DNA of 64,000 bases from Nitrosopumilus sp. (GCA_965238275.1 OZ250186.1:288001-352000); one strand, 5' to 3'; counted from the first letter of the stretch, positions 5,701 to 52,176 are shown. The notes: generated by a model from the letters alone, not told the origin. Program-made: numbers and translations.

Positions 5701-6282
5701 GTCAAGGATGCTGCCTCCTGTAATGTTCTTCTGTATCTTGCTGCGGTGGGCGCTGATAATATTCACGTGCCTGTTGAGGAAATACGTAAAGTCGTACTTG
5801 CAAAATACGACCTGCACCCACGCGGACTGGGCGCCCTGTATGGTGTTGGCGATGTTGGACAGCACCCACTGGGCCTCGTCTTCCTTGAACGCGGCAGTGT
5901 AGTGGCCGTGGTAATATCCGACGTCGAATATCTTGTATGGTATGGTCTTGTCATAGAAATCAGGATCAGGTTTTTCAAGCGGGATTATTTGGGCCCCGGG
6001 GTACATGTTGAGGAATGCCTGTTTGTATATTTGCGCGTCATCAGGCACCGTGACAATCACTATTTTGAGTTTCTTGGTCTCCCCGTCCCACCATATCTCG
6101 AACGATCTCACGGTGTCCGATGCCAGGCCGGCCGCGGCGTGCTTGATCATGTTCTCGTCGGAGTTGAGCGGTACCAATACTTCCATCGCCTTGCGCTCGG
6201 CGCCTTGGCCGATAAAGTCGGTTATCCCGTCCAGCCTGCCTTTCTGCTTGCGCGCGTTTGATATACTCCAAGTGTTACCCAT
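2719..6282 (-). CDS. VirD4/TraD/HerA-like (FtsK-HerA superfamily) ATPase, conjugative coupling-protein-like, with C-terminal wHTH, nuclease-like segment and acidic tail
   Basis: Walker A HVYVSGGTGSGKS, YFDPKGD, Walker B LALDEFQ, ARSKGLGLILAHQ; 1187 aa. Confidence 0.8.
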   Translation of the reverse strand: MGNTWSISNARKQKGRLDGITDFIGQGAERKAMEVLVPLNSDENMIKHAAAGLASDTVRSFEIWWDGETKKLKIVIVTVPDDAQIYKQAFLNMYPGAQIIPLEKPDPDFYDKTIPYKIFDVGYYHGHYTAAFKEDEAQWVLSNIANTIQGAQSAWVQVVFCKYDFTYFLNRHVNIISAHRSKIQKNITGGSILDGMKINFSGKPKPEARKEHPEANGDFQTNYPTLHADAVKKRQGPHTMVSIRGLVDTGTISDINVMGSISFEPIRCAYDYLTTFKYRHSSFFNRNLDKADYINVEQQHTMRQRIDMFPFRLLPDVRKFGYEIFDNYMRKGMMGSYKPRRSPPFIIALPNEMPTYIHLPKPSTPNISTTRGAVLPSQQINKPGFNIGRFEPQNTFNQEEYYRQFGREYAPSAIDAVTMSPDDFACHVYVSGGTGSGKSSIIKVMFKHLEMANLYASLRQDVPVRMIPCDMETKKLLADLDQNKTLRELGIGWSNACIYFDPKGDDTEFLLRQCERSTIYGDKIHYLDPSKTYFTLNPLELPPYDKEDRDAIVDLYVGYFFDMIKGWYGNSDAFVRMNRILHSLLLFLYVGEDKPTFKDMYEMIQNIQTDKNYLRVMYDALGEPSGDLDMALQSIADMDAKSFEPVLNRLEKFVVSNTMRQMFCRRKSTINFRDLIRPGHYTVVRFSESDIGLDKIGIAMQAFVMKLWFEVSFRSSTVSIKDRTQVVLALDEFQKIKSIGVLETMISQARSKGLGLILAHQNLKQLDDNKLSSITTNFGLQMAGHLEGNDAQRLASAWDPKYANEIKEKIATQPKHHWIARIAPEAGQEMPLPVQFWTHFDPVADEVCRSNISDEEWKEFIQSQKKLYMNREPEISMLDAKKMEKNRWKMSVADKRIPSHDHWHIMRILQHRQFSLTAITELYNPQNKPISGTRARDEIADILKEMIGAKLVTQDEGRKGKYSLTDFAMGKLSFGSNEVGKTLDIKEAIPIVSEYYLGKGFFLEMAVQLGRNDWHHIDMVAYDYNTDSPISVRIEPEGKVDSHPELAGQNMQKWVESGFSEYHAWSFNKELEDEYDRIGEGPIKEKVTAFIMDHEGGETRIITSAKPEDTEPEDSDADEFDTGDPPPNDDPPSSDDSDIRPDDEPSDDTPVDGDPPPHDSSSNDVPPGTVPPDDAQSGKSILDYRTF

Positions 6283-7295: not shown

Positions 7296-9076
7296 AGAGA
7301 ATATGCGTAATCCCCTATTCACATCGATAAATTTAGATCAGGCACGATCGCGTCTCACATCAAATGCCAGACTCGCCTGATCAGATCATATCCAAGTTAC
7401 AGCAGGAAAACAAAAGCCTAAAAAATATTCTAAATCAAAAAGACAAAAAGCTGGAGCAGAAAGACAAAAAGCTGGAGCAGAAAGACAAAAGCCTAAAAAA
7501 TATTCTAAAGCAGAAAGACAAAAAGCTGGAGCAGAAAGACAAAAAGTTGGAGCAGAAAGACAGGGAGCTGGGCCTTGAGCGCGGCCTGTGGAAGAGCAGG
7601 GACGATGGCTGGAACCCCGGCAAGGGACCCGCGCTGCACCTGCTAGAGGTGCTAGACGGCATAATACGCGACGGGGACAAGCTCCGTCAGGCCACGCTGG
7701 CAGACGGGGAACAGTTCCGGTACATGCTGGAGCGGGCCAAGGTATTCCTGGTGCATTCGGGCCAGATGCCGCTGTTCCGCGATAACGCATCCCGGGCATC
7801 CGATCCCGGAAACCGGTGCAAGCTGTACCTGAGGCACGCGCTGCTCATGGCACTTGTCCACAAAAAGGACAACCCCGCCCAGGGCGTGCTTGCCGCGTTC
7901 TTCGGGATAGACCAGACCACCGTGTCCCGGTACCTTCCGGTGATGGACGCGATGCTGGCAGGAATACTCCCGACGGCAGACAACATATCCGAGGAGGTAG
8001 CTGCCGCCCCGACCAAGGAGGATTTCAAGAAGATCGTGCCCGGGCCAGACGGGGGCGAGATATTCATAGACGGCACGCGCTGCTCATGGCACTTGTCCAC
8101 AAAAAGGACAACCCCGCCCAGGGCGTGCTTGCCGCGTTCTTCGGGATAGACCAGACCACCGTGTCCCGGTACCTTCCGGTGATGGACGCGATGCTGGCAG
8201 GAATACTCCCGACGGCAGACAACATATCCGAGGAGGTAGCTGCCGCCCCGACCAAGGAGGATTTCAAGAAGATCGTGCCCGGGCCAGACGGGGGCGAGAT
8301 ATTCATAGACGGCACGCACTGCCCCATACAGCGCCCGTCTGTAAAGTCAGTCCGGCGCATGAAATACTCCGGCAAGAAGAAAAAGTTCACCAATAACACC
8401 AACGTGTACACCAACCAGAACGGGGTGGTGATCGGCATGTCAAAAAGCACCGTCGGGTCAGTCGGCGACATCACGCTGCTCAAGGAACGCCCCATGCCGT
8501 TTGGAAAGTGGGAGAAGGCGATGCACGATCCGGACCTGCCAGAATCAGACAGGTGCCACCCCTTCGTCGACCGCGGCTACCAGGGAATCGCAGACCACCT
8601 GCCCGGCACCACGCCGGAGATCCCGTACAAGAAGACCAAAAAGACGCCGCTGACGCCGGAGCAAAAAAAGCACAACCACAGGATCAACTCCACCCGGGTG
8701 TTGGTGGAGCACACGATAGGCAGGCTCAAGCGCTACGCGCGTCTTGCCGACCCGTACGACGGCAACGCAGCCGGGTTCAACAGGGAGTTCAACGTGATCA
8801 CCGGGCTGGTAAACCTGAACCTTTTGTGGGACTGCATGGAAAAGGGTCCGCCGCCACCGGGGCAGTGGAAGACGTCAGTAGACTGGGACAGGGCCTGCTC
8901 CGAAGCTCCGGTCAAGTAGAATTCAGGGCACGATGAAGTGCTGCAAGGCTGCGCACGTCATTTTGGATTTTGGGGTGAACAGACTTGCCACATACACGAC
9001 ACGAGCAGTTTTAGGCCGTATTTTTCCGGTTTTTTATGGCCGGGTTGGCAAAATGGGTGGATTACGCATATCTTCT
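7296..9076 (+). mobile_element. IS5-family (ISL2/Harbinger-like) element, copy 1
   Basis: TIRs agagaatatgcgtaatcc / ggattacgcatatcttct; 3-bp TSD AAT (7293-7295, 9077-9079). Confidence 0.88.
7364..8919 (+). pseudogene. DDE_Tnp_4-type transposase, frameshifted by an internal 239-bp tandem duplication
   Basis: IFIDGTHCPIQRP, YSGKKK, VDRGYQG, VEHTIGRLK motifs; split into ORFs 7364-8149 and 7816-8919; intact paralog at 58836-60035. Confidence 0.88.
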
Positions 9077-10360: not shown

Positions 10361-10574
10361 TGTAAGAGGTCGCCTTTGCGAAGCGATTCCGTGCCTGATC
10401 TGTTCCGATTAATTACCAACTGAGCTACGTTTTTGACCATAAATGCCCGATTAATTGCACGTTATCAACACGGTCCTCAGGCAGGGTGGTTTTCGGATCA
10501 AGGCTCTTCCGGTTGGATCTTTTGCGCCGCATTTTCCGGCAGGCGCTGCGTGCCCAAAAGCTTTATGGATCATG

Positions 10575-11928
10575 AACTTTGTTTCCTAATTATCCCCAGC
10601 CACGCCCAACAGATCCAGAATCAGGTCGGACCAGCTGAATTTGAACACATTATCAAGCATCTTCAATAGAAAACCACATTGATCAGAGAGGTGTGCAGAC
10701 AGTCAGGTTATCGCCATGACTGAAAACACATCCTCTCCAGACAAAACGGGCACGCATGAGGCTAAAAAATCTTTCAAATCCAAAGAACGCCGGTTCCAGT
10801 ACGATGACCGCAGGTACATAGACCGCGGCCAGTTGTGGACGCTCCAGATAAGCCCGGAGATCCTGACTCAGGGGGTCGAGAAGCTAAACTGCGGGAAGGT
10901 AGGCCGCCCGTACGTATTTTCAAACGCGTGCTTTGCAGCAGCATCCCTGTTCAAAAACGCCACCGGCATAAGGTACAGGCAGCTCCAGGGTCTGGCAGAG
11001 ACGATAGTCGGCAAGGAAAACGCGCCCACGTACTCGGCGTTCCAGAAGAGGATGACCAAGCTTGGCTGCACTGTTGCAGACAATGATGATGGTAGCGGCA
11101 CGGCTTCTGCGTGGTTCTCAGACGGCGGCACCCGGGCCGAGATCAAGCTGTTTGCCTTCGACTCCACTGGACTCAAGCCCACAAACCGCGGCGACTGGAT
11201 GACAGAAAAGTGGGGGACCAGGCGGGGCTTCATAAAGCTGCACGTCGGGGTGGATGCCAAAACCAAAAAGATCTACGCCGTGGCCATAACCGACGACAAG
11301 TGCGGGGACTCTCCGCAGTTTGAGGAACTGGTGGGGCAGGCCCTTGCAAATGCAAAAAAATCACCAAACTCAGACACTTCTGCAGGCACCAAGGCGGCAG
11401 CCGACGGCGCGTACGACACCCAGAAGATCCGCAGGTACTGCGACGAGCAGGGAATCGAGCCGCTGATTCCCGTCCGCATCGACTTTGCCGGAAAGGCGAA
11501 CGGGTGCATGCCCCGCAAGGAGGCAGGATTCAGGCAGCTGGGGGACCTGGACTGCATGGACAAGACGGCAGAACGCAAGTTTGCAGGCCTCACGCGCGAA
11601 CAAAAGAGGGAATTCCAGAAGGCGTGGCGCAGGGAGTCAGGGTACAACGACCGGTGGTCAGTCGAGATTGTATTTTCCACGTTCAAGCGGGTGTTGGGCG
11701 AGTGCATAAGCGCGCGCAAGTGGGAGAACGTCAAGGCCGAGATATACGGAAAGGTGCAGCTGTACAACCAGATGATCGATACTGCAATCGACAACGGGTA
11801 CGGCACGCCAAGGATCGTGCAAGCCTACAAGCCCGGCCCAAGGACTGCAAGGGAAGGGGGCAAGACGACGACGTAGGCAGAATTGCACAGACGAGTATCT
11901 GTGTCGAGCGTAATTAGGAAACAGAGTT
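10575..11928 (+). mobile_element. IS5-family (IS903/ISH1-like) element, copy 1, 1354 bp
   Basis: TIR aact(t/c)tgtttcctaatta; 8-bp TSD GGATCATG (10567-10574, 11929-11936). Confidence 0.92.
10716..11876 (+). CDS. IS5-family DDE transposase
   Basis: FDSTGLK...KLHVGVD, ADGAYD, YNDRWSVEIVFSTFK motifs. Confidence 0.92.
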   Translation: MTENTSSPDKTGTHEAKKSFKSKERRFQYDDRRYIDRGQLWTLQISPEILTQGVEKLNCGKVGRPYVFSNACFAAASLFKNATGIRYRQLQGLAETIVGKENAPTYSAFQKRMTKLGCTVADNDDGSGTASAWFSDGGTRAEIKLFAFDSTGLKPTNRGDWMTEKWGTRRGFIKLHVGVDAKTKKIYAVAITDDKCGDSPQFEELVGQALANAKKSPNSDTSAGTKAAADGAYDTQKIRRYCDEQGIEPLIPVRIDFAGKANGCMPRKEAGFRQLGDLDCMDKTAERKFAGLTREQKREFQKAWRRESGYNDRWSVEIVFSTFKRVLGECISARKWENVKAEIYGKVQLYNQMIDTAIDNGYGTPRIVQAYKPGPRTAREGGKTTT

Positions 11929-13594
11929 GGATCATGCCTTCCCGTGTTATGGCGTGGTGCCTGTAATCGACTTGGAAAAGATTGACTGGGACTCCGTAAC
12001 CGACACCAAGTCCCTCTTCGAATCCGTCTTGGACATGCTCAAATCCAAGGACGAGGAGAGCATGGCACTGAGAAAAGACATCGAGCAGCTGAAGGAGGAG
12101 GCAGAGGCCTTCTCAGGGGAACATGCGATGCTGACGGAGATGGATGCCAGGATCAAACTGCTGGAAGAAGAGAATGTGCAAAAGGACTCCGAGATAGAGA
12201 AGCTGCGGGCAGAAAACGCCGCCCTCCTACAGGGATGCGACGTCTCGCAGGCAGTCATGGACAGGATAGCCCGCCTGGAACAGCAGGCATCAGAGCATGC
12301 CTCTCAGTTAAGGGAGGCGCGCGCGGCCAACTCGGCGCTGGCAGCCGAGAATCTGGGCATCAAAAGCCGCCGCTCCAAGAAGCGGCTCCGGGAATCACCC
12401 GGGCCTGCACCAGACCCGTTCAGAAAGGTCGTCTGCCTGCGCACCGGCCGTGATCCTCCCCCGATATCCGAAAAAAAGATAGTCGACATGTCCGCCTGCC
12501 CGCACGGCCACGCCCTATCGACAGAACCCACCGAGGTAACCTTCCGGGTAGTCGAGGAGATCATCGACGGGAAACTGACCGGCATCCAGTATACCATTAT
12601 TCGCAGGTACTGCAGGGAATGCGGCAGGCAGTTTGCCCCCGAGATCCCGGGAGTCGTCCCCGGTGGGCGGTTCGGCGCCAGCCTGACGTGCCTTGAGACG
12701 ACGATGAGGATGTACGGCATTCCCTACGAAATCATCCGCAAGCTGATCAACATAATCCACCACACAAACCTTGCAAAGTCGACTGTCATCGGCCACGTGG
12801 ATGCCGTGACAGGATCCCTCCACCCGCTCTACGAGGAGATGCTCGAGGATATGTTCTTCTCAGGGCATGTCTTTGGCGACGAGACCAGCTGGAGGGTAGC
12901 CGGTGTGCTGTACTGGCTGTGGATACTAGTCGGCTCCGACTCGGCTGTCTTTTACGTGGACAAGCGCCGGGGAGGAGACGTGCTGGAGGCCCTGCTTGGA
13001 GGGTACGCAGGCCACGTCACCTCTGATTCACACGCTGCGTGGAACCGCATCGGCAGGACCCACCAAAAGTGCCACTACCACTACCTCCGCGAGATCCTCC
13101 GCACCCTGACCATGAAAAACCCGGGGCCAGAATTCAAAAAGTTTGCCAAGGCCCTAAAGGGGATAATCATCGATTCCTGGCACGCAGAGAAGGGACTCAA
13201 CCCGCATGACGACAAGGCCGCGCGAAACCTCAAGGTGCGCAACCTCCTGGCCCGGGTAAGGCGCCTGATGTCTGGCAGCTACACCGAACCCCACTGCAAG
13301 CGGTTTGTCAAGCGGCTGCGGCGCGAGATCACCCACCTGTTCCCATTCATCCGCCTCAACACAAAGTGCCATAACAACGACGCCGAGCGCCCCCTGCGGC
13401 CCAGCGTCTCATCCCGGAATGTCTCAGGCGGCAGCAAGAGCCTTGCCGGCGCATACAACCACGCCGTCCTGGCCAGCATCCGCGAGACGTGCAGGATGCG
13501 CGGCGTCAACCCGCACGACTTTTTGGTAGACTACATGCGAGGTATCGTCGAAAGGATACCGGCAACAGCAGCAGCGGCAGCAACAACTGCATAA
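11927..13594 (+). CDS. IS66-family transposase (start uncertain, abuts IS5 end)
   Basis: Coiled coil, CPHGH...CREC zinc finger, GDETSW, SDSHAAW, HQKCHYH, NNDAERPLRP. Confidence 0.88.
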   Translation: MDHAFPCYGVVPVIDLEKIDWDSVTDTKSLFESVLDMLKSKDEESMALRKDIEQLKEEAEAFSGEHAMLTEMDARIKLLEEENVQKDSEIEKLRAENAALLQGCDVSQAVMDRIARLEQQASEHASQLREARAANSALAAENLGIKSRRSKKRLRESPGPAPDPFRKVVCLRTGRDPPPISEKKIVDMSACPHGHALSTEPTEVTFRVVEEIIDGKLTGIQYTIIRRYCRECGRQFAPEIPGVVPGGRFGASLTCLETTMRMYGIPYEIIRKLINIIHHTNLAKSTVIGHVDAVTGSLHPLYEEMLEDMFFSGHVFGDETSWRVAGVLYWLWILVGSDSAVFYVDKRRGGDVLEALLGGYAGHVTSDSHAAWNRIGRTHQKCHYHYLREILRTLTMKNPGPEFKKFAKALKGIIIDSWHAEKGLNPHDDKAARNLKVRNLLARVRRLMSGSYTEPHCKRFVKRLRREITHLFPFIRLNTKCHNNDAERPLRPSVSSRNVSGGSKSLAGAYNHAVLASIRETCRMRGVNPHDFLVDYMRGIVERIPATAAAAATTA

Positions 13595-14033
13595 ATCCTG
13601 CAAAATCCATCCATGGCTGCCCTGCATGTCCTGCGCGACTCCCGTCGCACCGGTTGCCTGACACGTATCAGGCCGCCGTACCGGCCCTCCACCAGATTCG
13701 GGCACAACGCACCGCCCCGGCAGCACCAAAAAAGATCCACTTCGCAAGTCCGATCACCGGATCGGCCAAAACGCAGCTCAGCCGAGCCTCACCCCGCCCG
13801 GAAAAAATCCTGAATAATGCCAATCAAATGGGCATTTACGGCCCAAAACGTAGCTCAGTTGGTAATTAATCGGGGCAGATCAGGCACGAAATCGCTTCGC
13901 AAAGGCGACCTCTTACAAATAAACCCGATTTGTAAAAGGTGGGATTACTTTACAGGCAAACTTGTGTGACTGTTGGATTTGTGATTCAGGTCGGTAGGGC
14001 TTCATAAGGAGGCAGTCGTGTAGGCATCTAAAC

Positions 14034-14789
14034 TCATCTTTCCCTTGCAGGGCTTCCCGTGCCAAATATTTTCAGCGCCGTCTCCCCCTGCTTTTGGATT
14101 GATACCTCGCTCCTCCTACCCCTTGACTTGACAGAGATCAGGCTCCAGTCCCTCTCCATCGGATCAAGCAGTACCCGCAACCTGCTATGCTTTGCAGAAC
14201 CACCGAGTTCTTTCCCATCCACATCCGAGAGACTGATCACACCCATCTCTTCAAGTTCTTTCATAAGCTGAGCCTTACGCATGACACCACCATGTCTACT
14301 CAGTAGATCCAAAATCAACATGAACTCCTGCTTTGGTTTGTTGATGCTGTACGTGGGGAGATCCTCCGGTTCGTCTACGTGCTCTGAGAGGTCTACAATT
14401 TTCTTCCTCCCGACGTACGAGACAGGGGCGTAATACGGATGTGCATTCCACATCATACACGATAGCATACCTGCTATGGACGTGATCTTGGTGCCGGTCG
14501 AGACATTGACGTAGACATGATTCTCCTTTGCATCCAAGATGATCTTGCGAAACCCCTCCACACACTTGTACAGATTCCACAGATCCAAAGAGATCTCCTC
14601 TACATGGATGTGCTTGTAATTCTGTTTCAGTTCGTTCTTTACTTTAGTGTAAAATACTAGTGCGTCGTCATCAATCTCGGTGTGTTTCACAAGGTATACT
14701 AGATCCGCACGCATCTGTATGAGCGGCTGGGTCACGCGCCGGAATTCGAATCCTACAGGAGATATGTGTATCCTAAGCTTGGTCTGCAA
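14034..14789 (-). CDS. HFX_2341/DUF6293-like CARF + winged-helix transcriptional regulator
   Basis: RIHISPVGFE N-terminus, CARF-type VYVNVSTGTKITSIA motif, C-terminal wHTH ending SRGRRSEVSIQKQG. Confidence 0.82.
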   Translation of the reverse strand: MQTKLRIHISPVGFEFRRVTQPLIQMRADLVYLVKHTEIDDDALVFYTKVKNELKQNYKHIHVEEISLDLWNLYKCVEGFRKIILDAKENHVYVNVSTGTKITSIAGMLSCMMWNAHPYYAPVSYVGRKKIVDLSEHVDEPEDLPTYSINKPKQEFMLILDLLSRHGGVMRKAQLMKELEEMGVISLSDVDGKELGGSAKHSRLRVLLDPMERDWSLISVKSRGRRSEVSIQKQGETALKIFGTGSPARER

Positions 14790-14828
14790 TGGGATCGTTA
14801 ACCATGTTTTCTTTATTTAGTTTTATCT

Positions 14829-14848
14829 CGTTATTAACTTTATTAACG
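14829..14848. promoter_or_regulatory. Imperfect palindrome in divergent promoter, candidate operator
   Basis: cgttattaactttattaacg (16/20 self-complementary) between the regulator and the Ubl operon. Confidence 0.45.
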
Positions 14849-14898
14849 TAATTACATCAAACAGATTAAAATAGTCGCAACCCCTTTAAAAAGTAGAG

Positions 14899-15135
14899 AT
14901 GAGCGAGATGGACAAGGAGAGCAAGATCATATTCGTCAATAACAAAAAGCTTTTCGTCAAAGAAGACGTGCTACTTGGAAAAGAGATATTGGAACTTGCG
15001 GGATTTGAGCCTAACAAGTACGATCTGTTTCTGGTGCGTGGCCAAAAAAGCGAAAGGATAGAAGAAAATCAACGGTGCGAGATCAAGAATGACATGCACT
15101 TTAATGCAATCCTAAAGGATGTGCCGTATGGGTGA
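14899..15135 (+). CDS. Ubiquitin-like beta-grasp protein (multiubiquitin-domain type)
   Basis: IIFVNNKKL...LLGKEILELAG...YDLFL...EIKNDMHF pattern; ends in C-terminal Gly (VPYG); 78 aa. Confidence 0.8.
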   Translation: MSEMDKESKIIFVNNKKLFVKEDVLLGKEILELAGFEPNKYDLFLVRGQKSERIEENQRCEIKNDMHFNAILKDVPYG

Positions 15136-15521
15136 TACCAGACAGGCTACTGCAAGACACCAACATGCTAAAGGCAAGAGGCTTTAACCTCAGCCTTATT
15201 GAGCGTGATGGGAAGGTGTATGTGGAATTCAAGGACTTTCCACTCCCAGAAGGCGTATACAGTATGGACACTACCAACTTGATTATCTTTACTAGTCCGC
15301 ATTACCCTTGCGCATCGTTTGATATGTTCTGGACGTTGCCTGAGTTGGTCATGAAAGACGGTCCCGTCCCCAAACAGGCAGAGGTCATAGAGACCCACTT
15401 GGGAAGAGAATGGAGGCGGTTCAGCTACCACCCATATCAAAATGTCACTTGGAATCCTTCTGACGATAATGTCGTAAAGTATGTAGGGTATGTACAGCAA
15501 AGGTTGCAAAACGGCGATTGA
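15132..15521 (+). CDS. Prokaryotic E2/UBC-fold protein (family E-like)
   Basis: DFPLPEGVY, YP..SFDMFW, WRRFSYH, WNPSDDN motifs; GTGA overlap with Ubl gene. Confidence 0.8.
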   Translation: MIPDRLLQDTNMLKARGFNLSLIERDGKVYVEFKDFPLPEGVYSMDTTNLIIFTSPHYPCASFDMFWTLPELVMKDGPVPKQAEVIETHLGREWRRFSYHPYQNVTWNPSDDNVVKYVGYVQQRLQNGD

Positions 15522-15522
15522 A

Positions 15523-16857
15523 ATGTGGACTATCACATTCCCTAAGCCCCTGTACAAGGAACTGGAAGAGTTTTTGTTCAGCACAGCACCATACGAGAAC
15601 GGGTGCTTTTTGCTAGCGCAGGCATATGATGCTGGCAAGAGATCCATGCTACTTGCCACGGACATCCTAAAACCTGCTGAGGGATCTTGGAACTCCCAAG
15701 GAAGGCACAGCCTTATGCCTAGCTCGTCGTTTATCAATGAATGCGTCGTAAGGTCGGAGGCGACCAAATCCAGCCTAATCTTTGTGCACACCCACCCAGA
15801 TACTGCACACCCTCCAACATTCAGCAAGATAGACAGGATAACCAACAGGAAGATGTTCACAAACCTCTCTGAGATCGTGCCTGGACGACCACTAGGTAGC
15901 CTGGTGTTCAGCAGGCATGGTGTTTCCGGAGTCGTGTTTGATAAGGCTAGAATCTCTAGCGTCAAACGTGTAAAGATAGTGGGCAACACTCTGACTGAGT
16001 GTAATACTATCGGGACCAACGCCAGATCGTCCAAGACAATGGCCATGTTTGAGAGGCAGACCAGAGCGTTTGGCACACATGTTCAACAACAGATCCAAAA
16101 CATGTCGGTGACTGTCATAGGAGTCGGTGGCACGGGTTCGTCTGTGTCAGTCCAGCTCGCAAGGATGGGTGTGAAACACATACGGTTGGTGGACATGGAC
16201 CACGTCGACGAGTCCAACCTTACAAGGATATATGGCTCAAGAAAGTCAGATGTGGGCAGGATGAAAGTAGACGTGCTGAGGCGTCACATTATGTCGTTTT
16301 CAAGATCCACAGTGACTGCGATATGTGCCAACGTGTTAGATGACTCTGTACTCAATGCGCTGATAGAGTCAGATGTCATGTTTGGATGTACTGACAACCA
16401 CATAAGCCGGCACAGACTCAACGAGATCTCGAACAGGTTCTACATCCCGTTAATTGACGTGGGGTGCAGGATAGATGTGGACGATGCCGGATCGATATCT
16501 CAGGCAGTAGCAAAGATTCAGGCCGTCACACCGGAAAGCGCGTGCCTGTGGTGCTCTGGTACCCTTGATGGCAGAACCATGTTGCAGGAATCGTTGCCGG
16601 AGGAAGAAAAAAAGAAGCTCGCAGAAGAAGGATACTACGAAGAGGTCGGCAAGCAGCCCAGCGTAATATCGTTGACCACGCTGGCTGCCAGCATGGCGGT
16701 CAACAAGTTCCTTGGCATCGTAGGCGCGATTGAAGATGAGTCAGGTACGAGGCTGCAAGTGGAACTGAGGGGCGGTTTCATGATCAGCGATGTGCCAGAG
16801 ATAAGGGCAGAATGTGTCTGCCGAAAGAATATGGGCGTGGTGTTCCGTAACGCCTAA
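15523..16857 (+). CDS. JAB/MPN+ metalloprotease fused to ThiF/E1 adenylation domain
   Basis: ENGCFL, HTHP...FSKID (JAMM); VIGVGGTGS, DMDHVDESNLTR, GCTDN, CLWC and CVC zinc ligands. Confidence 0.88.
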   Translation: MWTITFPKPLYKELEEFLFSTAPYENGCFLLAQAYDAGKRSMLLATDILKPAEGSWNSQGRHSLMPSSSFINECVVRSEATKSSLIFVHTHPDTAHPPTFSKIDRITNRKMFTNLSEIVPGRPLGSLVFSRHGVSGVVFDKARISSVKRVKIVGNTLTECNTIGTNARSSKTMAMFERQTRAFGTHVQQQIQNMSVTVIGVGGTGSSVSVQLARMGVKHIRLVDMDHVDESNLTRIYGSRKSDVGRMKVDVLRRHIMSFSRSTVTAICANVLDDSVLNALIESDVMFGCTDNHISRHRLNEISNRFYIPLIDVGCRIDVDDAGSISQAVAKIQAVTPESACLWCSGTLDGRTMLQESLPEEEKKKLAEEGYYEEVGKQPSVISLTTLAASMAVNKFLGIVGAIEDESGTRLQVELRGGFMISDVPEIRAECVCRKNMGVVFRNA

Positions 16858-17638
16858 AACGCGTCCTGAATTGGAACTGGTTGGGCTCTGGGTACTGCCA
16901 AGCCCGGACTCAGCATATCTTGATGAGCGCCTCGTCCACGTGGAATTTCGAAATGTTTCAAGCGAGACGATTCACGTAACGTCAGTCGCATGCTCGTTTC
17001 AAACGGAAGAAGATCTTGAAGATCATAGGATAGTGTGGACGCGTCCACTTTATTTGAAATCCAAACAGAGGAAGGCGATCACCATGAATCTAAAAATTGA
17101 TTTGGAACTAATTCCGTACACAAACATACCATTTACAGAGGTCTCATACACGATTGACAACTCAGAACGAGTTAAAAAATTTGAGTGTCCGCGTGGCTTT
17201 GCCAACATCAACAATATCCCGTCCCATGACAAATACTTCTTCATCTCGCACAAGATTCCCACAGACACACGACTGGCCAGACGACTCGATTATTACCTGC
17301 GGAAGATCGGATTTTGGGGGTATGTTGCGGAAGCCATCCCCCAGCCTGGTCAGTCGGTGTGGGAGGAAAAGCTCTTTCCAAAAATAGAAGAATGCACCGG
17401 CGTTATCGTACTATGGACCCGAGAGGCCAAAGGATCGCCCGAATCCATAGATCGAGAGGTGCGCCGTGCTAGGAAGTATGACAAGAGAGTAATGTCGCTT
17501 ATAGAAGGCGAATCAATACCGGATGTGGTTGCCAATCAACCAGAGGAATACATTATGACAAGTGGTCCCATAACGGAGTCTAGCCTCGTCAAACTTGTAC
17601 ACAGAATACGCATGATGTACGAAGACGGAACTTTTTGA
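16814..17638 (+). CDS. TIR-domain protein with N-terminal beta-rich domain (alternative start TTG 16871)
   Basis: FFISH, IEECTGVIVLWT, SIDREVRRA with the Glu at the catalytic position of TIR NADases. Confidence 0.78.
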   Translation: MSAERIWAWCSVTPKTRPELELVGLWVLPSPDSAYLDERLVHVEFRNVSSETIHVTSVACSFQTEEDLEDHRIVWTRPLYLKSKQRKAITMNLKIDLELIPYTNIPFTEVSYTIDNSERVKKFECPRGFANINNIPSHDKYFFISHKIPTDTRLARRLDYYLRKIGFWGYVAEAIPQPGQSVWEEKLFPKIEECTGVIVLWTREAKGSPESIDREVRRARKYDKRVMSLIEGESIPDVVANQPEEYIMTSGPITESSLVKLVHRIRMMYEDGTF

Positions 17639-17928
17639 TTGTATCACGACACCCAAACGTAATCATCATACTGACGAGTAGTGAAAAATTTGTATCACAC
17701 GCAACGGTACAGGATCTTTTAGGCCTGCAATCACGGCGGATCTGGATCCCTTGCAGTATCCCGACTTGGGAACTTCCCGTGAATTTACCCACTTGCTTGT
17801 GTTGCATTCCCCTGTAGCACCGCCAAAATCTAAAAATAGTATGTGATTCGCTTTTTGAAGTTCCCCGAGATTCCGTGCCTGTATGCGTAGTAATTTGATT
17901 AATGATTCGGACAATTAATTGAATTTTG

Positions 17929-19564
17929 GTATCTGTGTAGTTTTTTGATCAAATGTTGAACTCCATATCTACAATTAGAAAATCCGCGTCTGTCTAATTT
18001 TTTTAAAACTATTTTTGATCACTTGATCGAGTTTTTCTCTCCGTCCTAATTTTTAGATCATTGTTGCCCACGGTTTGCATATGTCTGATGATAATTCCGA
18101 GTCAAGGATTGCAGAACTGGAGGAAAAAGTGGGTGTGATGGCAGAGCAGATGGCCGAAAAAGACCGGCAGATGGCCGAAAAAGACCGGCATATGGCCAAA
18201 CTCGCTGATCTTTACGCTGCCGCCCTCAAACAGATCCAGGATCTCACGGCAGAGTTGCAGGAGGCAAAGGGCATCATATCGGCTGCCGTTGCAAGGAGCA
18301 TCGGCGCAAAACCGGACAAAAAGACCGGCAGTACCCGGCGCCGCGCAAAGGGCAAGGGCAAGGGCAAGCCAAGTGACCACAAACGCACGGGCCTTGCGCG
18401 TCCTGAAAGAATAGACGCAGAGGAAACAGCAGATCCGCACACGTGCGGCAACTGCGGCAGCTCCGACCTCTCAGAATGTGTGTCCACGTACACAAAGGTG
18501 GTAAGGGAGGCTGCCAAGGTGGAACTAGAGCACATCAAGGTGACAGTAAAGAGAAGGCGCTGCAGGAACTGCAAGAAGACCGTGTCTGGCATGACTCCGC
18601 TGGCACTGCCAAACTCCAGGTACGGGATCAACTTTATGATAATGATGGTCATCCTCAGGCTGCACGGCATGTCAGACCTCAGGATATGCCAGATTGTCCT
18701 GATAACGTACTCTGCAAGGATCACCGAATCTGCCATAAACCGCATGGTGTGCAGGATGGCACGGGAGCTTGGGCCGCTGTACGAGAAGATCAAGGAGGAG
18801 GTGAGGCGCTCGCCTGCGATAAACGGGGACGAGTCCGTCTGGCGCGTCAACGGCACCAACTACTGGCTGTGGGCGGTGGTAACAAAGTACGCCGTAATCT
18901 ACGAGGTACACCGCCGCAGGAACTCGAAGGTTCCAAAAAAGATGCTTGGCAGGGACTATTCGGGATGCGTGACGTCTGACTCGTGGGGAGCGTGGAACGT
19001 CATAGGAGCCATGCACCAAAAGTGCCACCTGCATTACGTCCGGGACGTCAAGGACACCCTGAAATACAAAAATCCCGGCCAGGACTACCGGCGGCACGCA
19101 AGGACGCTGCGCAGCATACTGTGGGACTCGCACGTCGACGGTGCCATTCTGGGAGGAGCAGACGCGCTTGCCACAAAGAAGAGGCTGGACCGTCGCATCG
19201 CGTCCCTGGTAGGCAGGCTCGAGAAGGACCGCGACTGCAAGCACTGCAACAGGATGCGCAAGAGGCTGGTGCGGGAAAGGGATCACCTGTTTGCGTTTCT
19301 GGAGACAGACGATGTCGAATACCACAACAACCGGGCAGAGCGGGCCATCAGGCCGTACGTCATCCTTCGCAAGAACAGCAACGGGAGCAGGTCAAAGAAG
19401 GGCGCAGACGCTATTGCCATACTGATGAGCATCAAGCAGACATGCAAGGCAAGGGGCGATGATCTTTGCACGGTCCTGCGCGAGGGTCTGGTTCTATGTC
19501 AAAAAAATACATAGTTTCTTGTAGACCTGGAATTCAACATTTGATCAAAAAACTACACAGTTAC
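17929..19564 (+). mobile_element. Single-ORF IS66-family element, copy A
   Basis: TIR gta(t/a)ctgtgtagttttttgatcaaatgttgaa; 8-bp TSD GAATTTTG. Confidence 0.92.
18075..19514 (+). CDS. IS66-family transposase
   Basis: CGNC/CRNC zinc finger, GDESVW, HQKCHLH, HNNRAERAIRP. Confidence 0.92.
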   Translation: MHMSDDNSESRIAELEEKVGVMAEQMAEKDRQMAEKDRHMAKLADLYAAALKQIQDLTAELQEAKGIISAAVARSIGAKPDKKTGSTRRRAKGKGKGKPSDHKRTGLARPERIDAEETADPHTCGNCGSSDLSECVSTYTKVVREAAKVELEHIKVTVKRRRCRNCKKTVSGMTPLALPNSRYGINFMIMMVILRLHGMSDLRICQIVLITYSARITESAINRMVCRMARELGPLYEKIKEEVRRSPAINGDESVWRVNGTNYWLWAVVTKYAVIYEVHRRRNSKVPKKMLGRDYSGCVTSDSWGAWNVIGAMHQKCHLHYVRDVKDTLKYKNPGQDYRRHARTLRSILWDSHVDGAILGGADALATKKRLDRRIASLVGRLEKDRDCKHCNRMRKRLVRERDHLFAFLETDDVEYHNNRAERAIRPYVILRKNSNGSRSKKGADAIAILMSIKQTCKARGDDLCTVLREGLVLCQKNT

Positions 19565-19743
19565 GAATTTTGCCGTATTTTTGCCATAGTCTACATCCAT
19601 GCGGTAAATTTCCCGGCTTTGGTACAAGGGGACTACATCATGGACGGGCGTGCCCGTCATTTGGACATGGCTTGAATCAAAGACGGCGTGTATTGGACAG
19701 TTTGCAGGTGGCTGGAGCGAATCCACGCCGTATTTGAGATGCA

Positions 19744-21184
19744 TAGTATTACGATTAAAGATCTGAAAAACCAAAGTCAGGTGAACCTGCCTTTTGGATG
19801 AACCTGTAGGCCAAACCCCGTTCTGGACGCATGGTGCGCCATGCAGGCGAACAAGACGGCGGGGGAAGCAGGCGTGGCTGCCGTCAGATCTGGAGTCTCC
19901 GATGGAATCATTCGGGCAAGGCCGTGATGCCTCAGGATGGGATGCCATAATGAACCGTCTGCTGCATCGAGCGTGTTATGTAGAAAGGGGGACTGTCAGG
20001 CCGTCAGGCGGGCGTTCCGGTGCGGAAACTGCATCCGGGCTCTCCCGAATCTTTATGGCATCCAGTATGTACTTGAACAGCTTTACTCTGGCCACCTCTC
20101 CGTCATTGAGCATCTTTCTGATTCTCTTCTCCAGCCTGTCAAACCCGCCAAAGAACGTGTCTGCAATCGCCCTCTTGATCTCCCTCCACTGTACCTCTAT
20201 GGGGTTGTGCTGCGGCGTGTGCGGGGGCAGGAACCACCTTACTACGGCACCATTTGCCTTCTCGATGAACTCGTCCATGTCCTTGCTCTTGTGTGTAGCC
20301 GCGTTGTCCATTATCACAAAGACCCTCCCGTACTTTTGCCTGATCTCCTCCAGGAGTGCGATTACGTTCTTTGTGCCCAGCTTTTCATGGAACTGCACGT
20401 CCAGAGTGTCCTCGCCAAGGGCACCGATGATCTTGATACTCTTCTTGGAATAGTTGATCTTGATTTCGTCGCATCCGCCCCTGCGCCGTATGCCGCGGCT
20501 GGATGCAGGCGAGTCGACCAGGGCTGCCGCATCCAGACACACCACCTTGTAGCGCTTCTGGACATACGTTTCTATCTCCCTCACGGTATTCTTTACGTAC
20601 TCTTCCTGCTCCTGCACGGTGGCCGAATTGTACGGCGCCGGTCTGGTCTTCCTGACTGAGAAGTTCAGTCTGGCCGTAAGCCTGAGGGCTCCGTCGGCAC
20701 TGTACCTGACGTTAAACGTATTCAGGATGTGGCAGGAGACGAGCTTGGCTGTCCAGTTGCCTCGTTGGAAGCCGCTCTCCTCGGGGCTCTTCTCCAAGGC
20801 CTCGTCCAGACTGCTCCTCTGCGGGTCGGACAGGCGGCACGGCCTGCCGGGGCTCTTGCGATCGTACCTCCTCCCCGTGTCGCCATCCAACCGCAGTAGC
20901 CAGCCGTGTATCGTACTCTGGCTTTCCGATGGCCTCGGATATCTCATTTAGAAACTTGCCCTTTTTCCTGTGACAAGCCGCCTGCAACATGATCTGGGCC
21001 TTGCAGTCCTTTTCCTTGGCCTGCATCGATTGGAGTTCCTCCTCACTGATGTCCTTGAGGAACTCCTCCCCACGTTTTACCACTTTTGCCGGCCTCACGG
21101 GGTTTCTTGTGGGATGATCGATCTGAACCTTTCGGTTTGCCGTGACTCATAATTGGGTTTTCCGGATCTTTAATCGTAATACTA
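19744..21184 (-). mobile_element. IS630-family element
   Basis: TIR tagtattacgattaaagatc at both ends, with TA. Confidence 0.88.
19976..21098 (-). pseudogene. IS630 transposase, frameshifted near 20920
   Basis: N-terminus in ORF 20712-21098, remainder in ORF 19976-20947 (DNAATH, LPPHTPQHNPIE). Confidence 0.82.
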
Positions 21185-21205
21185 TGCATGTGCAATGGTT
21201 GGTTT

Positions 21206-22384
21206 CTAGCAGGCAACGGCTGCACGATTTGGCGGTCCCGCGTGGTACTGCAAACGTGTTTTCACTTCCGGCGTGGCAACGGCTGCACAGTTCAGTGGAG
21301 GTTCCGGGGTCGGAAGGACTGCCGTCCTGGTCTCCCCAATGACGCCGCAGGCCTCTAGCATGTACCACAGCATCTTGATCCGGGGAATCTCTCCGCTCTC
21401 CACCAACAGCGTGATCCTTTCCTTCATCTCGTCGGATCTGCCAAAGAACGTGTTTGATATGGCCCTTTTAATCTCCCTCCACAGCATCTCGATGGGGTTG
21501 TGCTGCGGGGTACGCGGGGGAAGAAAGCACAGGGCCACCTTGCCTTTTTCGGACCGGACATAATCCCTCATGGCCCTGCCGGTGTGGGCGCCTGCGTTGT
21601 CAAGGATCACGAAGATCTTTTCGTGTTTTTCACGGAGCTTCTTGAAAAATGCAATTATGCCTTCCGCCTTCAGGTTTTCCGGATAGTCAAGCTCAACTGT
21701 GTCTTGGCTCATGGCTCCAATGACATGGACGCCCTTTTTGGAATAGTTGACACGGACTGTATCCCTCTCGCCCCTGAGCAGTATGCCGTATTTTGGGACC
21801 GGCGTGTTGATGATGCTGGCTGCATCAAAGCAAAACAGCTTGAAACCGTTCTTGTGGTGTGTTGTTATCTCCTTGACAGTATTTTTCACGTATTCCTCCA
21901 GATCTTCCTCCGTGGCCGTGTTGTACGGCACGGGCCTGCGCTTTCGGACTGAGAAGTTCATCCTGTCAGTCAGCCTGAGGACTCCGGAGATGCCGTACTT
22001 TATGCCAAACGCATTGCCGATGTGGGAGGCGACCATGCGGGCAGTCCACATGTCCGAGCAGAAGCCGCTCTTTTCAGGACTGTCACGAAGTATGCCCTCC
22101 AGGTGTATCCGGATGCGCTCTGACAGGCGGCACGGTCTGCCGGGACTCTTGCAGTCATGCCTGTACTCCAACCCTCCGACTGCCAGTCGCATCAGCCAGT
22201 CATATACCGTGCTCCTTGCATATCCGATGGCATCCAAGGACATTCCCCTCTTCCGGTGTATGGCTGCCTGTAGCCTCATCTTGGCCTTGTGGCAGGATTC
22301 CTTGCCTTGCATGACTTTAAGATCCTCCAGAGGGATATCTGGAAGGAATTCTGCTCCCCGCTTTATTCTTTTTTCACTAGGCAT
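21206..22384 (-). CDS. IS630-family transposase
   Basis: FCFDAA, LDNAGAH, LPPRTPQHNPIEMLW; 392 aa uninterrupted. Confidence 0.9.
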   Translation of the reverse strand: MPSEKRIKRGAEFLPDIPLEDLKVMQGKESCHKAKMRLQAAIHRKRGMSLDAIGYARSTVYDWLMRLAVGGLEYRHDCKSPGRPCRLSERIRIHLEGILRDSPEKSGFCSDMWTARMVASHIGNAFGIKYGISGVLRLTDRMNFSVRKRRPVPYNTATEEDLEEYVKNTVKEITTHHKNGFKLFCFDAASIINTPVPKYGILLRGERDTVRVNYSKKGVHVIGAMSQDTVELDYPENLKAEGIIAFFKKLREKHEKIFVILDNAGAHTGRAMRDYVRSEKGKVALCFLPPRTPQHNPIEMLWREIKRAISNTFFGRSDEMKERITLLVESGEIPRIKMLWYMLEACGVIGETRTAVLPTPEPPLNCAAVATPEVKTRLQYHAGPPNRAAVAC

Positions 22385-22479
22385 GGGGGTGGTGGATAGC
22401 TCATATGATCTTAATGTTTCGGTTTGCTCAAAAAATGATTAAAAATCCCGGGATTTTGTCCGAATCATTAATCAAAATA

Positions 22480-22788
22480 CTACGCGTCCATCTTCTCCAA
22501 GTTATTCGAGGTGTACAGCAGCACTGATGCCCCGTGCTTGCAGACCTTCCCGGCGTAAAGGCACGTGCAATCACAACTCGGGTGTTCCGGGTCATGGCGC
22601 ATTCCCACCTGATGGACGGTGCCGTCCAAAACGCGTCCCCTCAGGACGTTCTTGTCGAGTCTGGCCCGGATTACTCCGCCGTCGCGCAGCAATTTTTGTC
22701 CCGGCTTGAACGACTCGCCTGACACGTTTTTGATCCATTCGGTAGTTAGCACTTCCTTGACCTTTAGACCCGCATGATTCTTAATCAT
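22480..22788 (-). pseudogene. SWIM zinc-finger protein, C-terminally truncated at the IS630 end
   Basis: CTC...VCKHGASVLL; stop codon coincides with the IS terminal TA. Confidence 0.65.
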
Positions 22789-40025: not shown

Positions 40026-41379
40026 AACTCTGTTTCCTAATTACGCTCGACACAGATACTCGTCTGTGCAATTCTGCCTACGTCGTCGTCTTGCCCCCTT
40101 CCCTTGCAGTCCTTGGGCCGGGCTTGTAGGCTTGCACGATCCTTGGCGTGCCGTACCCGTTGTCGATTGCAGTATCGATCATCTGGTTGTACAGCTGCAC
40201 CTTTCCGTATATCTCGGCCTTGACGTTCTCCCACTTGCGCGCGCTTATGCACTCGCCCAACACCCGCTTGAACGTGGAAAATACAATCTCGACTGACCAC
40301 CGGTCGTTGTACCCTGACTCCCTGCGCCACGCCTTCTGGAATTCCCTCTTTTGTTCGCGCGTGAGGCCTGCAAACTTGCGTTCTGCCGTCTTGTCCATGC
40401 AGTCCAGGTCCCCCAGCTGCCTGAATCCTGCCTCCTTGCGGGGCATGCACCCGTTCGCCTTTCCGGCAAAGTCGATGCGGACGGGAATCAGCGGCTCGAT
40501 TCCCTGCTCGTCGCAGTACCTGCGGATCTTCTGGGTGTCGTACGCGCCGTCGGCTGCCGCCTTGGTGCCTGCAGAAGTGTCTGAGTTTGGTGATTTTTTT
40601 GCATTTGCAAGGGCCTGCCCCACCAGTTCCTCAAACTGCGGAGAGTCCCCGCACTTGTCGTCGGTTATGGCCACGGCGTAGATCTTTTTGGTTTTGGCAT
40701 CCACCCCGACGTGCAGCTTTATGAAGCCCCGCCTGGTCCCCCACTTTTCTGTCATCCAGTCGCCGCGGTTTGTGGGCTTGAGTCCAGTGGAGTCGAAGGC
40801 AAACAGCTTGATCTCGGCCCGGGTGCCGCCGTCTGAGAACCACGCAGAAGCCGTGCCGCTACCATCATCATTGTCTGCAACAGTGCAGCCAAGCTTGGCC
40901 ATCCTCTTCTGGAACGCCGAGTACGTGGGCGCGTTTTCCTTGCCGACTATCGTCTCTGCCAGACCCTGGAGCTGCCTGTACCTTATGCCGGTGGCGTTTT
41001 TGAACAGGGATGCTGCTGCAAAGCACGCGTTTGAAAATACGTACGGGCGGCCTACCTTCCCGCAGTTTAGCTTCTCGACTCCCTGAGTCAGGATCTCCGG
41101 GCTTATCTGGAGCGTCCACAACTGGCCGCGGTCTATGTACCTGCGGTCATCGTACTGGAACCGGCGTTCTTTGGATTTGAAAGATTTTTTAGCCTCATGC
41201 GTGCCCGTTTTGTCTGGAGAGGATGTGTTTTCAGTCATGGCGGTAACCTGACTGTCTGCACACCTCTCTGATCAATACGGTTTTCTATTGAAGATGTTTG
41301 ATATTATGTTCAAATTCAACTGATCTGGCCTAATTCTGAACCTGTTGGGTGTGACTGGCGATAATTAGGAAACAGAGTT
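40026..41379 (-). mobile_element. IS5-family element, copy 2, 1354 bp
   Basis: Same TIRs as copy 1; 8-bp TSD CATCTTTC (40018-40025, 41380-41387). Confidence 0.93.
40078..41238 (-). CDS. IS5-family DDE transposase
   Basis: One amino acid different from 10716-11876. Confidence 0.93.
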   Translation of the reverse strand: MTENTSSPDKTGTHEAKKSFKSKERRFQYDDRRYIDRGQLWTLQISPEILTQGVEKLNCGKVGRPYVFSNACFAAASLFKNATGIRYRQLQGLAETIVGKENAPTYSAFQKRMAKLGCTVADNDDGSGTASAWFSDGGTRAEIKLFAFDSTGLKPTNRGDWMTEKWGTRRGFIKLHVGVDAKTKKIYAVAITDDKCGDSPQFEELVGQALANAKKSPNSDTSAGTKAAADGAYDTQKIRRYCDEQGIEPLIPVRIDFAGKANGCMPRKEAGFRQLGDLDCMDKTAERKFAGLTREQKREFQKAWRRESGYNDRWSVEIVFSTFKRVLGECISARKWENVKAEIYGKVQLYNQMIDTAIDNGYGTPRIVQAYKPGPRTAREGGKTTT

Positions 41380-43740: not shown

Positions 43741-43742
43741 TC

Positions 43743-45251: not shown

Positions 45252-45254
45252 TAA

Positions 45255-51876: not shown

Positions 51877-51974
51877 GAAAGTACGTCCAAGCGTAAATTA
51901 TTGGATTACTAGGAACAACCCATTATTTTGCCCACTAAATCTAAAAACTTTTAAGATATTTTGCAACGACAGAT

Positions 51975-52175
51975 ATGTTGACTATAAACCCGCTCATACT
52001 GGATAAGATTGACAGTCTTGATGTGCCAGACAAGATAAAGATGATCCTCAAAGAGATTCTTGAGATGGAGGATCGTCTAGAGATACACGACGAAAAGAGG
52101 GGTGCTGTGTCATCGATAAGCAAGATTCTTGAGAAATATGCCGACGAGGGGGACGTAAAGGAGTTCTGTTCCTGA
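51975..52175 (+). CDS. Small helical protein (PbeB-like by position)
   Basis: 66 aa, between the helicase and SMC ATPase genes, 1 bp from the next start. Confidence 0.65.
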   Translation: MLTINPLILDKIDSLDVPDKIKMILKEILEMEDRLEIHDEKRGAVSSISKILEKYADEGDVKEFCS

Positions 52176-52176
52176 C

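Follow-up and report, generated by a model that had tools for sequence, protein, structure and literature searches.

A five-gene cassette in the genome of the archaeon Nitrosopumilus sp. (GCA_965238275.1) is probably a horizontally acquired variant of the Bub (formerly 6E) ubiquitin-like conjugation systems, placed under a CARF-domain regulator and fitted with a swappable toxic effector. The cassette lies in OZ250186.1:288001-352000, a stretch of 64,000 nt that was analyzed as a whole and is referred to here as the window. The host genome (2.2 Mb, a single contig, 99.9% complete) encodes archaeal AmoA (match 2.8e-116), which identifies the host as an ammonia oxidizer. We are highly confident of the identity of the parts and of the recurrence of the cassette, and moderately confident of the reading as a whole, including the mechanism set out below. 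A gene for a CARF protein with a winged helix-turn-helix (wHTH) is transcribed divergently from an operon encoding a ubiquitin-like protein (Ubl), an E2, a JAB-E1 fusion, and a protein with beta-sandwich and TIR domains:

14034-14789, minus strand: CARF-wHTH regulator, 251 aa; Pfam matches to HFX_2341_N (PF19810, 1.6e-29) and to the winged helix DUF6293_C (PF22665, 2.4e-12)
14834-14847, unstranded: putative operator TTAACTTTATTAAC, a conserved intergenic motif
14865-14873, plus strand: TATA-like element ATTAAAATA, 26-34 nt ahead of the Ubl start codon
14899-15135, plus strand: Ubl, 78 aa, a single beta-grasp domain with C-terminal VPYG; Pfam Multi_ubiq 4.7e-6, 27.1 bits (cut-off 24.5)
15132-15521, plus strand: BubB-like E2, 129 aa; Pfam Prok-E2_E 4.1e-23
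15490-16857, plus strand: BubCD-like JAB-E1 fusion, 455 aa; Pfam ThiF 8.6e-35 and a weak N-terminal Prok-JAB match, 0.0053, below cut-off
16814-17638, plus strand: beta-sandwich and TIR protein, 274 aa; Pfam TIR_2 at residues 142-229, 1.8e-5, 25.7 bits (cut-off 28)

The operon genes are tightly coupled. Ubl and E2 overlap by 4 nt (GTGA), E2 and E1 by 32 nt, and E1 and the TIR gene by 44 nt when the latter is counted from GTG 16814; the second overlap becomes a 1-nt gap if E1 begins at ATG 15523, which may be its true start, and the third becomes a 13-nt gap if the TIR gene begins at TTG 16871. Reading frames and Pfam and PADLOC matches agree with a preliminary description of this locus, which had proposed five genes with these domains in this operon structure. 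The two catalogs checked cover no such set: PADLOC has no model matching the Ubl, E2, or TIR protein of the cassette, its E1-E2 models cover only the adenylation core of JAB-E1 (residues ~200-356), and none of the cassette's proteins reaches an NCBIfam model cut-off.

Judged from its sequence, the core of the cassette is a Bub/6E-type conjugation module in which the residues of an oxyester route are kept. The preliminary description had named Bub only as a comparison; the core proves to be of that type itself. The best solved relative of JAB-E1 is Citrobacter BubCD (1.1e-31 over residues 19-409), and that of the E2 is Citrobacter BubB (1.8e-5, with the D..MF and S-x-H motifs aligned). Bub operons are described as functioning without catalytic cysteines, with Citrobacter relying on E1 crossover-loop Tyr370, E2 Ser333 together with His335 and Asp299, R227 for adenylation, and a JAB site of E28/H91/H93/D104 (PMC11601596). 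After correction for a two-residue offset in the deposited chain, BubCD E28/H91/H93/D104, R227, and Y370 align with E36, H100, H102, D115, R246, and Y382 of the window's JAB-E1, and BubB D299/S333/H335 align with D64, S98, and H100 of its E2. Among sequences from homologous cassettes, E36, H100, H102, S112, and D115 of the JAB half and Arg246 and crossover-loop Tyr382 of the E1 half are kept in 15/15, and the three E2 residues in 14/14; Cys60, the sole cysteine near the E2 site, was found only in the window's sequence.

Further features set this core apart from Type I Bub. Ubl and E2 are separate genes rather than a BubAB pre-protein, as they also are in plasmid loci with DUF6527. Gly78 of the Ubl is invariant in all 13 aligned Ubls: in six it is the C-terminal end, so that no processing would be needed, unlike in Type I Bub, and in seven it is followed by a tail of 1-13 residues, a mixture consistent with trimming by JAB where needed. 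The E1 half also carries C352xxC355 and C442xC444, present in 14 of 15 sequences and differing from Citrobacter BubCD. We take these four cysteines to be a structural zinc site as in MoeB/ThiF-type enzymes, and this is probably their function.

The fourth position of the operon is where the cassette departs from its relatives. BubE (DUF6527) is described as a component of every Bub operon (PMC11601596). No match to DUF6527 (PF20137) was found in the cassette or in the whole host genome, nor did Pfam scans of the genes surrounding the cassette show one in further loci with a TIR gene (TIR-type loci); the gene in fourth position instead encodes the beta-sandwich and TIR protein. An AlphaFold model of this protein (pLDDT 73) has two domains, an N-terminal beta-sandwich (residues ~20-130) and a C-terminal flavodoxin-like TIR domain (~140-274). 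In a fold search, the N-terminal domain matched Ig-like and ApaG sandwiches (Z 10.8 and 10.3); a Foldseek search of the two-domain model against the PDB gave generic Ig-like and glycosidase sandwich matches alone, at low TM, and the best ESM Atlas match to the N-terminal domain (0.82) was below the useful range, its nearest named cluster, CARDB/DUF11, serving as a lead only. The protein apparently annotated for this gene (P0001) has 184 aa, or 67% of the frame, starting at an internal Met and omitting most of the beta-sandwich, while homologues cover 91-93% of the long frame, which argues for the long form. Prediction of a complex of Ubl, E2, and the TIR protein, with alignments as input, gave a score of 0.20 (mark, 0.32), a value that speaks neither for nor against binding.

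The TIR protein belongs to a large family. An initial word-index protein search returned three homologues; the exhaustive profile search used to define the family returned 1402 relatives at E<=1e-3, 173 at <=1e-10, and 51 at <=1e-30, most of them 240-290 residues long and matching over their full length. Homologues of the window's protein score 28-52 bits against TIR_2. In a 63-sequence alignment of the family, N47 and E215 alone are invariant (63/63). The solved sequences closest to the family profile are SPARTA TIR-APAZ (3.8e-8) and SARM1 (8.5e-5), and E215 aligns with Glu77 of TIR-APAZ, which we take to be the catalytic residue of that protein. We infer from these alignments that the TIR domain is of the NAD-cleaving kind.

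An enzyme of another kind, a nucleoside or nucleotide N-glycosidase or a deoxyribosyltransferase-like protein that depletes or alters nucleotides, is an unlikely identity for the C-terminal domain. In the fold search, nucleoside deoxyribosyltransferases and TIR domains together span Z 13.6-11.3, with TIR domains alone at 12.8-11.3; the top matches are 2-deoxyribosyltransferases (Z 13.6, root-mean-square deviation 2.5, 122 residues) and MilB (Z 12.8), tied with TIR. A cytidine/dCMP-deaminase found in the same position in a related locus (see below) would fit a common nucleotide-pool theme. Sequence profiles nevertheless choose TIR_2 and the solved TIR NADases over deoxyribosyltransferases.

The TIR gene belongs to the cassette, as its recurrence elsewhere makes plain. 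Scans with a 19-sequence subset of the TIR family found 21 other loci, one in a species-representative genome and 20 on metagenome contigs (two contig pairs are near-identical). In 19 of these 21, a JAB-E1 gene in the same orientation immediately precedes the TIR gene, bearing out the co-occurrence of TIR with homologous operons on which the preliminary description depended; the remaining two contigs have no more than 301 bases upstream of the TIR gene. Fifteen of the loci extend far enough upstream to show the other core genes: all 15 have an E2 and 14 a Multi_ubiq Ubl, the contig of the remaining one starting inside E2. Matches at E<=1e-8 were found in 14 of 400 other Nitrosopumilaceae genomes (six full-length, two partial), and the five full-length matches inspected, together with one partial match, sit in the cassette.

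Within this family, three genomes (G435, G629, and G662) carry the genes in the window's exact order, with a divergent CARF gene followed by Ubl, E2, JAB-E1, and TIR, the TIR gene of G662 being cut by the contig end. A fourth, G452, which entered the analysis through a search with HFX_2341_N rather than with TIR, has the window's arrangement with a different last gene, and G492 has a four-gene cassette with no CARF gene recognized. Identity to the window's proteins in these loci is 50-54% for E1, 48-55% for E2, 54-59% for the Ubl (27% in G492), and 33-37% for the TIR protein. In an E1 tree, the window and these five genomes form one clade (support 100/100), and 13 other members form a separate TIR clade (support 100/99), the branching between the two being unresolved. 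A first tree had placed the window on a long unresolved branch, and its position was settled once close relatives had been added.

Some of these loci have features of their own. The 5.9-kb contig of G435 (L067) holds two converging TIR-type cassettes, one a complete window-type unit with CARF; of the other, the contig includes the 3' end of E1 and, after it, a further TIR-family gene (TIR_2 1.6e-13). In G629 (L068), a second, different TIR protein of 308 aa with an N-terminal TIR_2 match (8.9e-16) is encoded directly downstream of the beta-sandwich and TIR gene (8076-9002, plus strand), and HerA-like, DUF6036, and AAA_23 genes lie nearby. The locus of G492 (L071) has a GC content of 70%, though the genome is listed in the same family.

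The core is not confined to cassettes with a TIR gene. Homologues of JAB-E1 occur in 40 records of a plasmid collection, in which a search with the TIR protein gave no match. Seven plasmid loci were inspected: DUF6527 follows E1 in four, the three core genes stand alone in two, and one haloarchaeal locus has a longer E1. The TIR type is thus the minority form within a modular system. The longer E1 (L036, plasmid NZ_CP095398.1 of Natribaculum luteum) is a related ThiF-family protein of 598 aa, encoded beside small unannotated genes and a vWA-MoxR pair. A third type of cassette in G116 (L034; 4210-6878, minus strand) encodes a Ubl ending in KRGSQ, an E2 with SYH, and JAB-E1, with no TIR; two proteins of 76 and 135 aa without a Pfam or PADLOC match follow JAB-E1. 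Among viral contigs, a scan with the TIR alignment gave 44 pattern matches, none of which was confirmed.

The fourth gene has been replaced in G452 (L074). There, a 541-aa protein (2990-4615, minus strand) takes the place of TIR; its gene overlaps the 3' end of an intact E1, and it carries a cytidine/dCMP-deaminase domain (MafB19-like; dCMP_cyt_deam_1 3.2e-15) at residues 282-453, the first 280 residues being without assignment. The G452 E1 is nested in the window's E1 clade (100/100), its CARF protein is 59% identical to the window's, and the operator motif is kept. This exchange of TIR for a deaminase while core, CARF, and operator are retained supports the reading of the fourth gene as an effector. 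We also considered a single adaptor domain carrying different effectors; when the profiles of the TIR family and the G452 protein were compared, no common N-terminal domain emerged (probability 0.3), which leaves this idea without support.

The regulator is tied to the cassette in the window's own clade and varies elsewhere. The window's CARF protein, which falls under the NCBIfam cut-offs, matches PADLOC CARF3 PDLC01847 (5e-52, residues 1-242) and is 55-59% identical to the divergent CARF proteins beside the cassette in G435, G629, G662, and G452. The preliminary description had treated CARF as part of the unit. This holds for the clade, where five of six members, all Nitrosopumilaceae and drawn from five genera, have a divergent CARF gene; it does not hold across all TIR-type loci, where the regulator is swappable: metagenome loci have a divergent CARF-wHTH of PDLC01861 (L011), TrmB (L010), a LexA-like protein (L019), XRE-SocA (L022), or none that was recognized.

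Conserved motifs between the CARF and Ubl genes point to the same conclusion for the clade. An 11-nt block, ACTTTATTAAC, within TTAACTTTATTAAC is invariant in all five aligned CARF-Ubl intergenic regions, and the proteins flanking these regions share ~50-59% identity; an invariant non-coding block between half-identical proteins is good evidence for a cis-regulatory site. CARF-wHTH presumably binds TTAACTTTATTAAC as its operator. An (A/G)TTAAATA-like block (window 14865-14873) is conserved in all five regions as well, and, from its position and established archaeal promoter architecture, the ATTAAAATA box would be the promoter element of the operon. The host genome carries a second HFX_2341 copy; the cassette CARF is a paralogue, 27% identical to the solitary copy common in the family. 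Searches of the host genome found no Cas10 (Csm1 and Cmr2 models) and no Cas1, which indicates that the CARF ligand is not a product of type III CRISPR.

TIR domains are able to produce signal molecules, and nucleotides are the ligands of CARF domains. The preliminary description accordingly entertained a loop resembling Thoeris, in which a nucleotide made by the TIR protein binds the CARF regulator and feeds back on transcription of the operon. The missing Cas10 and Cas1, which leave the CARF ligand to come from elsewhere, would suit such a loop, as would the presence of two CARF-wHTH subfamilies beside TIR-type cassettes (PDLC01847 in the window and PDLC01861 in L011). We nonetheless regard it as very improbable: G452 keeps CARF and the operator motif even though its fourth gene encodes a deaminase, the regulator of most TIR-type loci is of another kind or was not recognized, the cassette has no gene for a signal-binding effector, and the TIR profile is nearest to terminal NADases (SPARTA, SARM1) rather than to ThsB.

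In the mechanism that we favor, the E1 half would adenylate Gly78 of the Ubl, which would then pass to Tyr382 of E1, to Ser98 of E2, with Asp64 and His100 assisting, and finally to lysines of its targets, along the oxyester route demonstrated for Citrobacter Bub. The JAB half would trim tailed Ubls and probably strip conjugates, an activity that matters because the dedicated BubE peptidase is absent. The fourth gene would supply the effector, its TIR protein cleaving NAD+ or another nucleotide upon conjugation; activation could come about through tagging of the TIR protein itself or through recognition of tagged proteins, or of the machinery, by the beta-sandwich. Ubl conjugation would in this way license or localize a toxic effector. 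CARF-wHTH most likely binds TTAACTTTATTAAC beside the TATA box, with a small ligand governing its control of expression. Defense against viruses or mobile elements, or a stress response, would be the most likely role of the whole.

The known system closest to the cassette is Type I Bub (6E.1; Ye, Gong, Chambers, Corbett; PMC11601596). As described there, it shares with the window's cassette a Multi_ubiq Ubl, a Prok-E2_E E2, an E1 preceded in the same protein by JAB, the Tyr of E1 and the Asp and Ser-x-His residues of E2, and a sporadic, mobile occurrence with varied upstream regulators. It differs in having BubE/DUF6527 and a BubAB pre-protein, neither of which the window's cassette has, and in its regulators, which are CapW, CapH with CapP, or CapK with CapS rather than CARF-wHTH; the cassettes described here add the four-Cys motif in E1 and a TIR or deaminase gene in fourth position. 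The 6e operons of Iyer et al. (2006; PMC1779556, Table 1, row 6e), recorded in proteobacteria, actinobacteria, and cyanobacteria, are listed with a polyUbl, an inactive E2, JAB-E1, and a metal-binding protein and without TIR.

The preliminary description knew of no such combination from an ammonia-oxidizing archaeon. Bub as such has a precedent in these organisms, since a Type II Bub is listed for Ca. Nitrosopumilus adriaticus (Table S1 of PMC11601596). The word TIR occurs zero times in the main text of two Bub preprints and a Bil preprint (PMC11601596, PMC11601603, and PMC10557695) and of PMC1779556, and zero times in one supplement of PMC11601596. Full-text searches turned up no Bub-type operon described as having a TIR or deaminase gene; their scope took in the Bub papers as preprints and excluded subscription journals and bioRxiv supplements. 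Within that scope, a Bub-like core that lacks BubE and has an added effector and a clade-specific CARF regulator is a newly described combination.

Other conjugation systems differ more deeply. Type II CBASS and Thoeris systems with Cap2/Cap3 likewise combine E1/E2 machinery, JAB, and an immune nucleotide enzyme, sometimes a TIR protein, in one operon, and conjugation is thought to prime the immune enzyme (bioRxiv 10.64898/2025.12.03.692087). As described there, they have a fused E2-E1 (Cap2), a separate JAB, and no separate Ubl, the signaling or TIR enzyme itself being conjugated via its own C-terminal Gly; the window's cassette has a dedicated Ubl, a separate E2 without a catalytic Cys, and a JAB-E1 fusion. 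The window's TIR protein was considered as an E1 substrate by way of a C-terminal Y-x-x-G, which is unlikely: the motif is kept among close members alone and not family-wide, and tail lengths vary. Bil operons, which are antiphage through protein tagging, resemble the cassette in combining Ubl, E2, E1, and JAB. In Bil, however, JAB has a gene of its own, the E1 combines tandem adenylation domains with a cysteine domain, and an effector gene is absent (according to PMC11601596); none of these traits is found in the window's cassette.

The archaeal SAMP/UbaA system pairs E1 with a ThiS/MoaD-type Ubl and has no E2, whereas the window's cassette has one, and the SAMP E1 model scores 52.5 bits on the window's JAB-E1 against a cut-off of 450. 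An E1-like match is common to 16 of 24 genomes of the same genus; in the one whose Pfam content was determined (G005, L004), it is a ThiS-ThiF fusion beside a PLP-dependent enzyme. By its domain content, this genus-wide gene is of the sulfur-carrier type and not Bub, and it occupies a different locus from the cassette, in keeping with the distinction that had been drawn between the operon and SAMP/UbaA. The remaining relatives concern single proteins. SPARTA TIR-APAZ and SARM1 have APAZ/Argonaute or ARM-SAM partner domains, whereas the window's TIR domain is joined to an ApaG/Ig-like beta-sandwich, with the Ubl core genes alongside. Csa3 and HFX_2341-type regulators resemble the window's CARF protein in having a Rossmann-like CARF domain and a winged helix and in being divergent from the regulated operon, but the window's gene is not beside CRISPR-cas. 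Thoeris pairs its TIR protein with a signal-activated effector (ThsA-type or other), for which the window's cassette has no further gene.

The cassette occupies an island of 3.96 kb (13918-17879) between two insertion sequence (IS) elements, whose terminal inverted repeats stop 117 and 242 bases short of its genes; the locus is thus bounded by IS elements as had been reported. The flanking elements are as follows:

10361-13917, unstranded: IS66-type element of the left flank; 97-nt inverted arms (10361-10457 and 13821-13917) with 91% complementarity, and transposase Pfam matches
10575-11928, unstranded: DDE_Tnp_1 IS nested in the left IS66-type element; 18-nt inverted arms, Pfam match
17880-22490, unstranded: IS630-type element of the right flank; 35-nt arms (17880-17914 and 22456-22490), DDE_3 Pfam match
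17926-19567, unstranded: IS66 nested in the right IS630-type element; inverted arms, IS66 Pfam match
19732-21196, unstranded: IS630-type element nested in the right IS630-type element; inverted arms, DDE_3 Pfam match

Across the right-flank elements the inverted arms measure 35, 49, and 44 nt. The GC content of the island is 47.5%, compared with 56% in a nearby housekeeping block, and that of third codon positions (GC3) is 0.50-0.60 compared with 0.71; this foreign base composition points to horizontal acquisition. The right-flank IS66 transposase gene contains a perfect 21-nt tandem duplication (18146-18187), and a second DDE_Tnp_1 transposase copy at 40078-41238 (minus strand) has the same Pfam scores as the copy at 10716-11876.

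So dense an IS setting raises the prospect that the window's copy is a decaying, nonfunctional remnant stranded between IS elements. Its TIR_2 score below the cut-off would agree with decay, as would a TIR protein that has diverged further from those of its clade than has E1. Among recorded sequencing runs, none listed as RNA contains the stretch, a blank that counts neither way. This is the least probable of the alternatives considered, and highly improbable in its own right, given that all five frames are intact, the family-invariant and catalytic residues are all present, and the conserved promoter and operator motifs are undamaged.

The wider window is an accessory, defense-rich stretch. 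It holds many further IS elements outside the cassette flanks, and near the island a 1187-aa protein with TraG/TrwB coupling-protein domains (2719-6282, minus strand) hints at an integrated conjugative element. Positions 42661-57146 hold a DNA phosphorothioation island of the Dnd type, with genes for DndB (2e-113), a PAPS-reductase-like DndC, a DndD-like SMC/AAA_23 protein, a cysteine desulfurase, an HNH protein, and a ResIII helicase, followed by another AAA_23 protein and an 801-aa protein without a Pfam match. In other loci, the cassette's neighbors include DNA methylases with ResIII or XcyI nucleases, AbiEii, caspase-TPR, SLOG, Shedu SduA-type, and HerA-like ATPase genes and a second TIR protein. 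Downstream of the cassette, the loci have no fifth gene in common.

TIR domains can also act as scaffolds. The system could then be a regulated protein-modification or stress-response system without a role in defense, its TIR domain serving as scaffold or adaptor, a possibility that we rate as quite unlikely. It would find some backing in the account of the Bub authors, who report that none of these operons has so far shielded E. coli against phage, leave the role open, and consider a stress response (PMC11601596). Several observations count against it: the Glu at the catalytic position is invariant throughout the alignment, TIR has been swapped for another toxin-type domain, and the cassette is mobile, of foreign composition, and found among defense genes. 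Its distribution is also sporadic, with Prok-E2_E passing its cut-off in 3 genomes of a 401-genome sample of the phylum, in addition to the 14 of 400 in the family.

Returning to a CARF-regulated Bub variant with swappable toxic effectors as the preferred reading, several points weigh against it. The tie between TIR domains and nucleoside 2-deoxyribosyltransferases in the fold search means that the substrate could differ from NAD+, and the window's own TIR_2 match falls short of the Pfam cut-off. The lack of phage protection by Bub operons so far, as described in PMC11601596, weighs on the call of defense. No recognizable effector gene is present in G116 or in two of the seven inspected plasmid loci; cores of this kind imply that the conjugation machinery can do without an effector, whose own action might be independent of the core. 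Conjugation may also take a thioester route via the four conserved cysteines of E1. Finally, HFX_2341-type regulators are common and mostly solitary in the family, with 51 of 100 other genomes carrying one (G483 and G495, both flagged unpublished, are among those counted).

The replacement of a deconjugating peptidase by a TIR protein or a deaminase supports an immune or abortive role for Bub. As a more tentative extension, Bub operons of this effector type may constitute a distinct class of prokaryotic immunity in ammonia-oxidizing archaea, and probably in bacteria, in which oxyester Ubl conjugation arms a swappable suicide effector, whether a SPARTA/SARM1-like TIR NADase or a deaminase, and in which, in the archaeal clade, a CRISPR-independent CARF protein sets expression via an operator. 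If so, the Bub family would gain the biological output that it has been missing, and ubiquitin-like tagging would directly gate the destruction of NAD+ or nucleotides outside eukaryotes. A CARF regulator would also be tied to a non-CRISPR system. To our knowledge, the antiviral systems of ammonia-oxidizing archaea have been little studied, and the cassette adds to these organisms a conserved, mobile candidate for defense.

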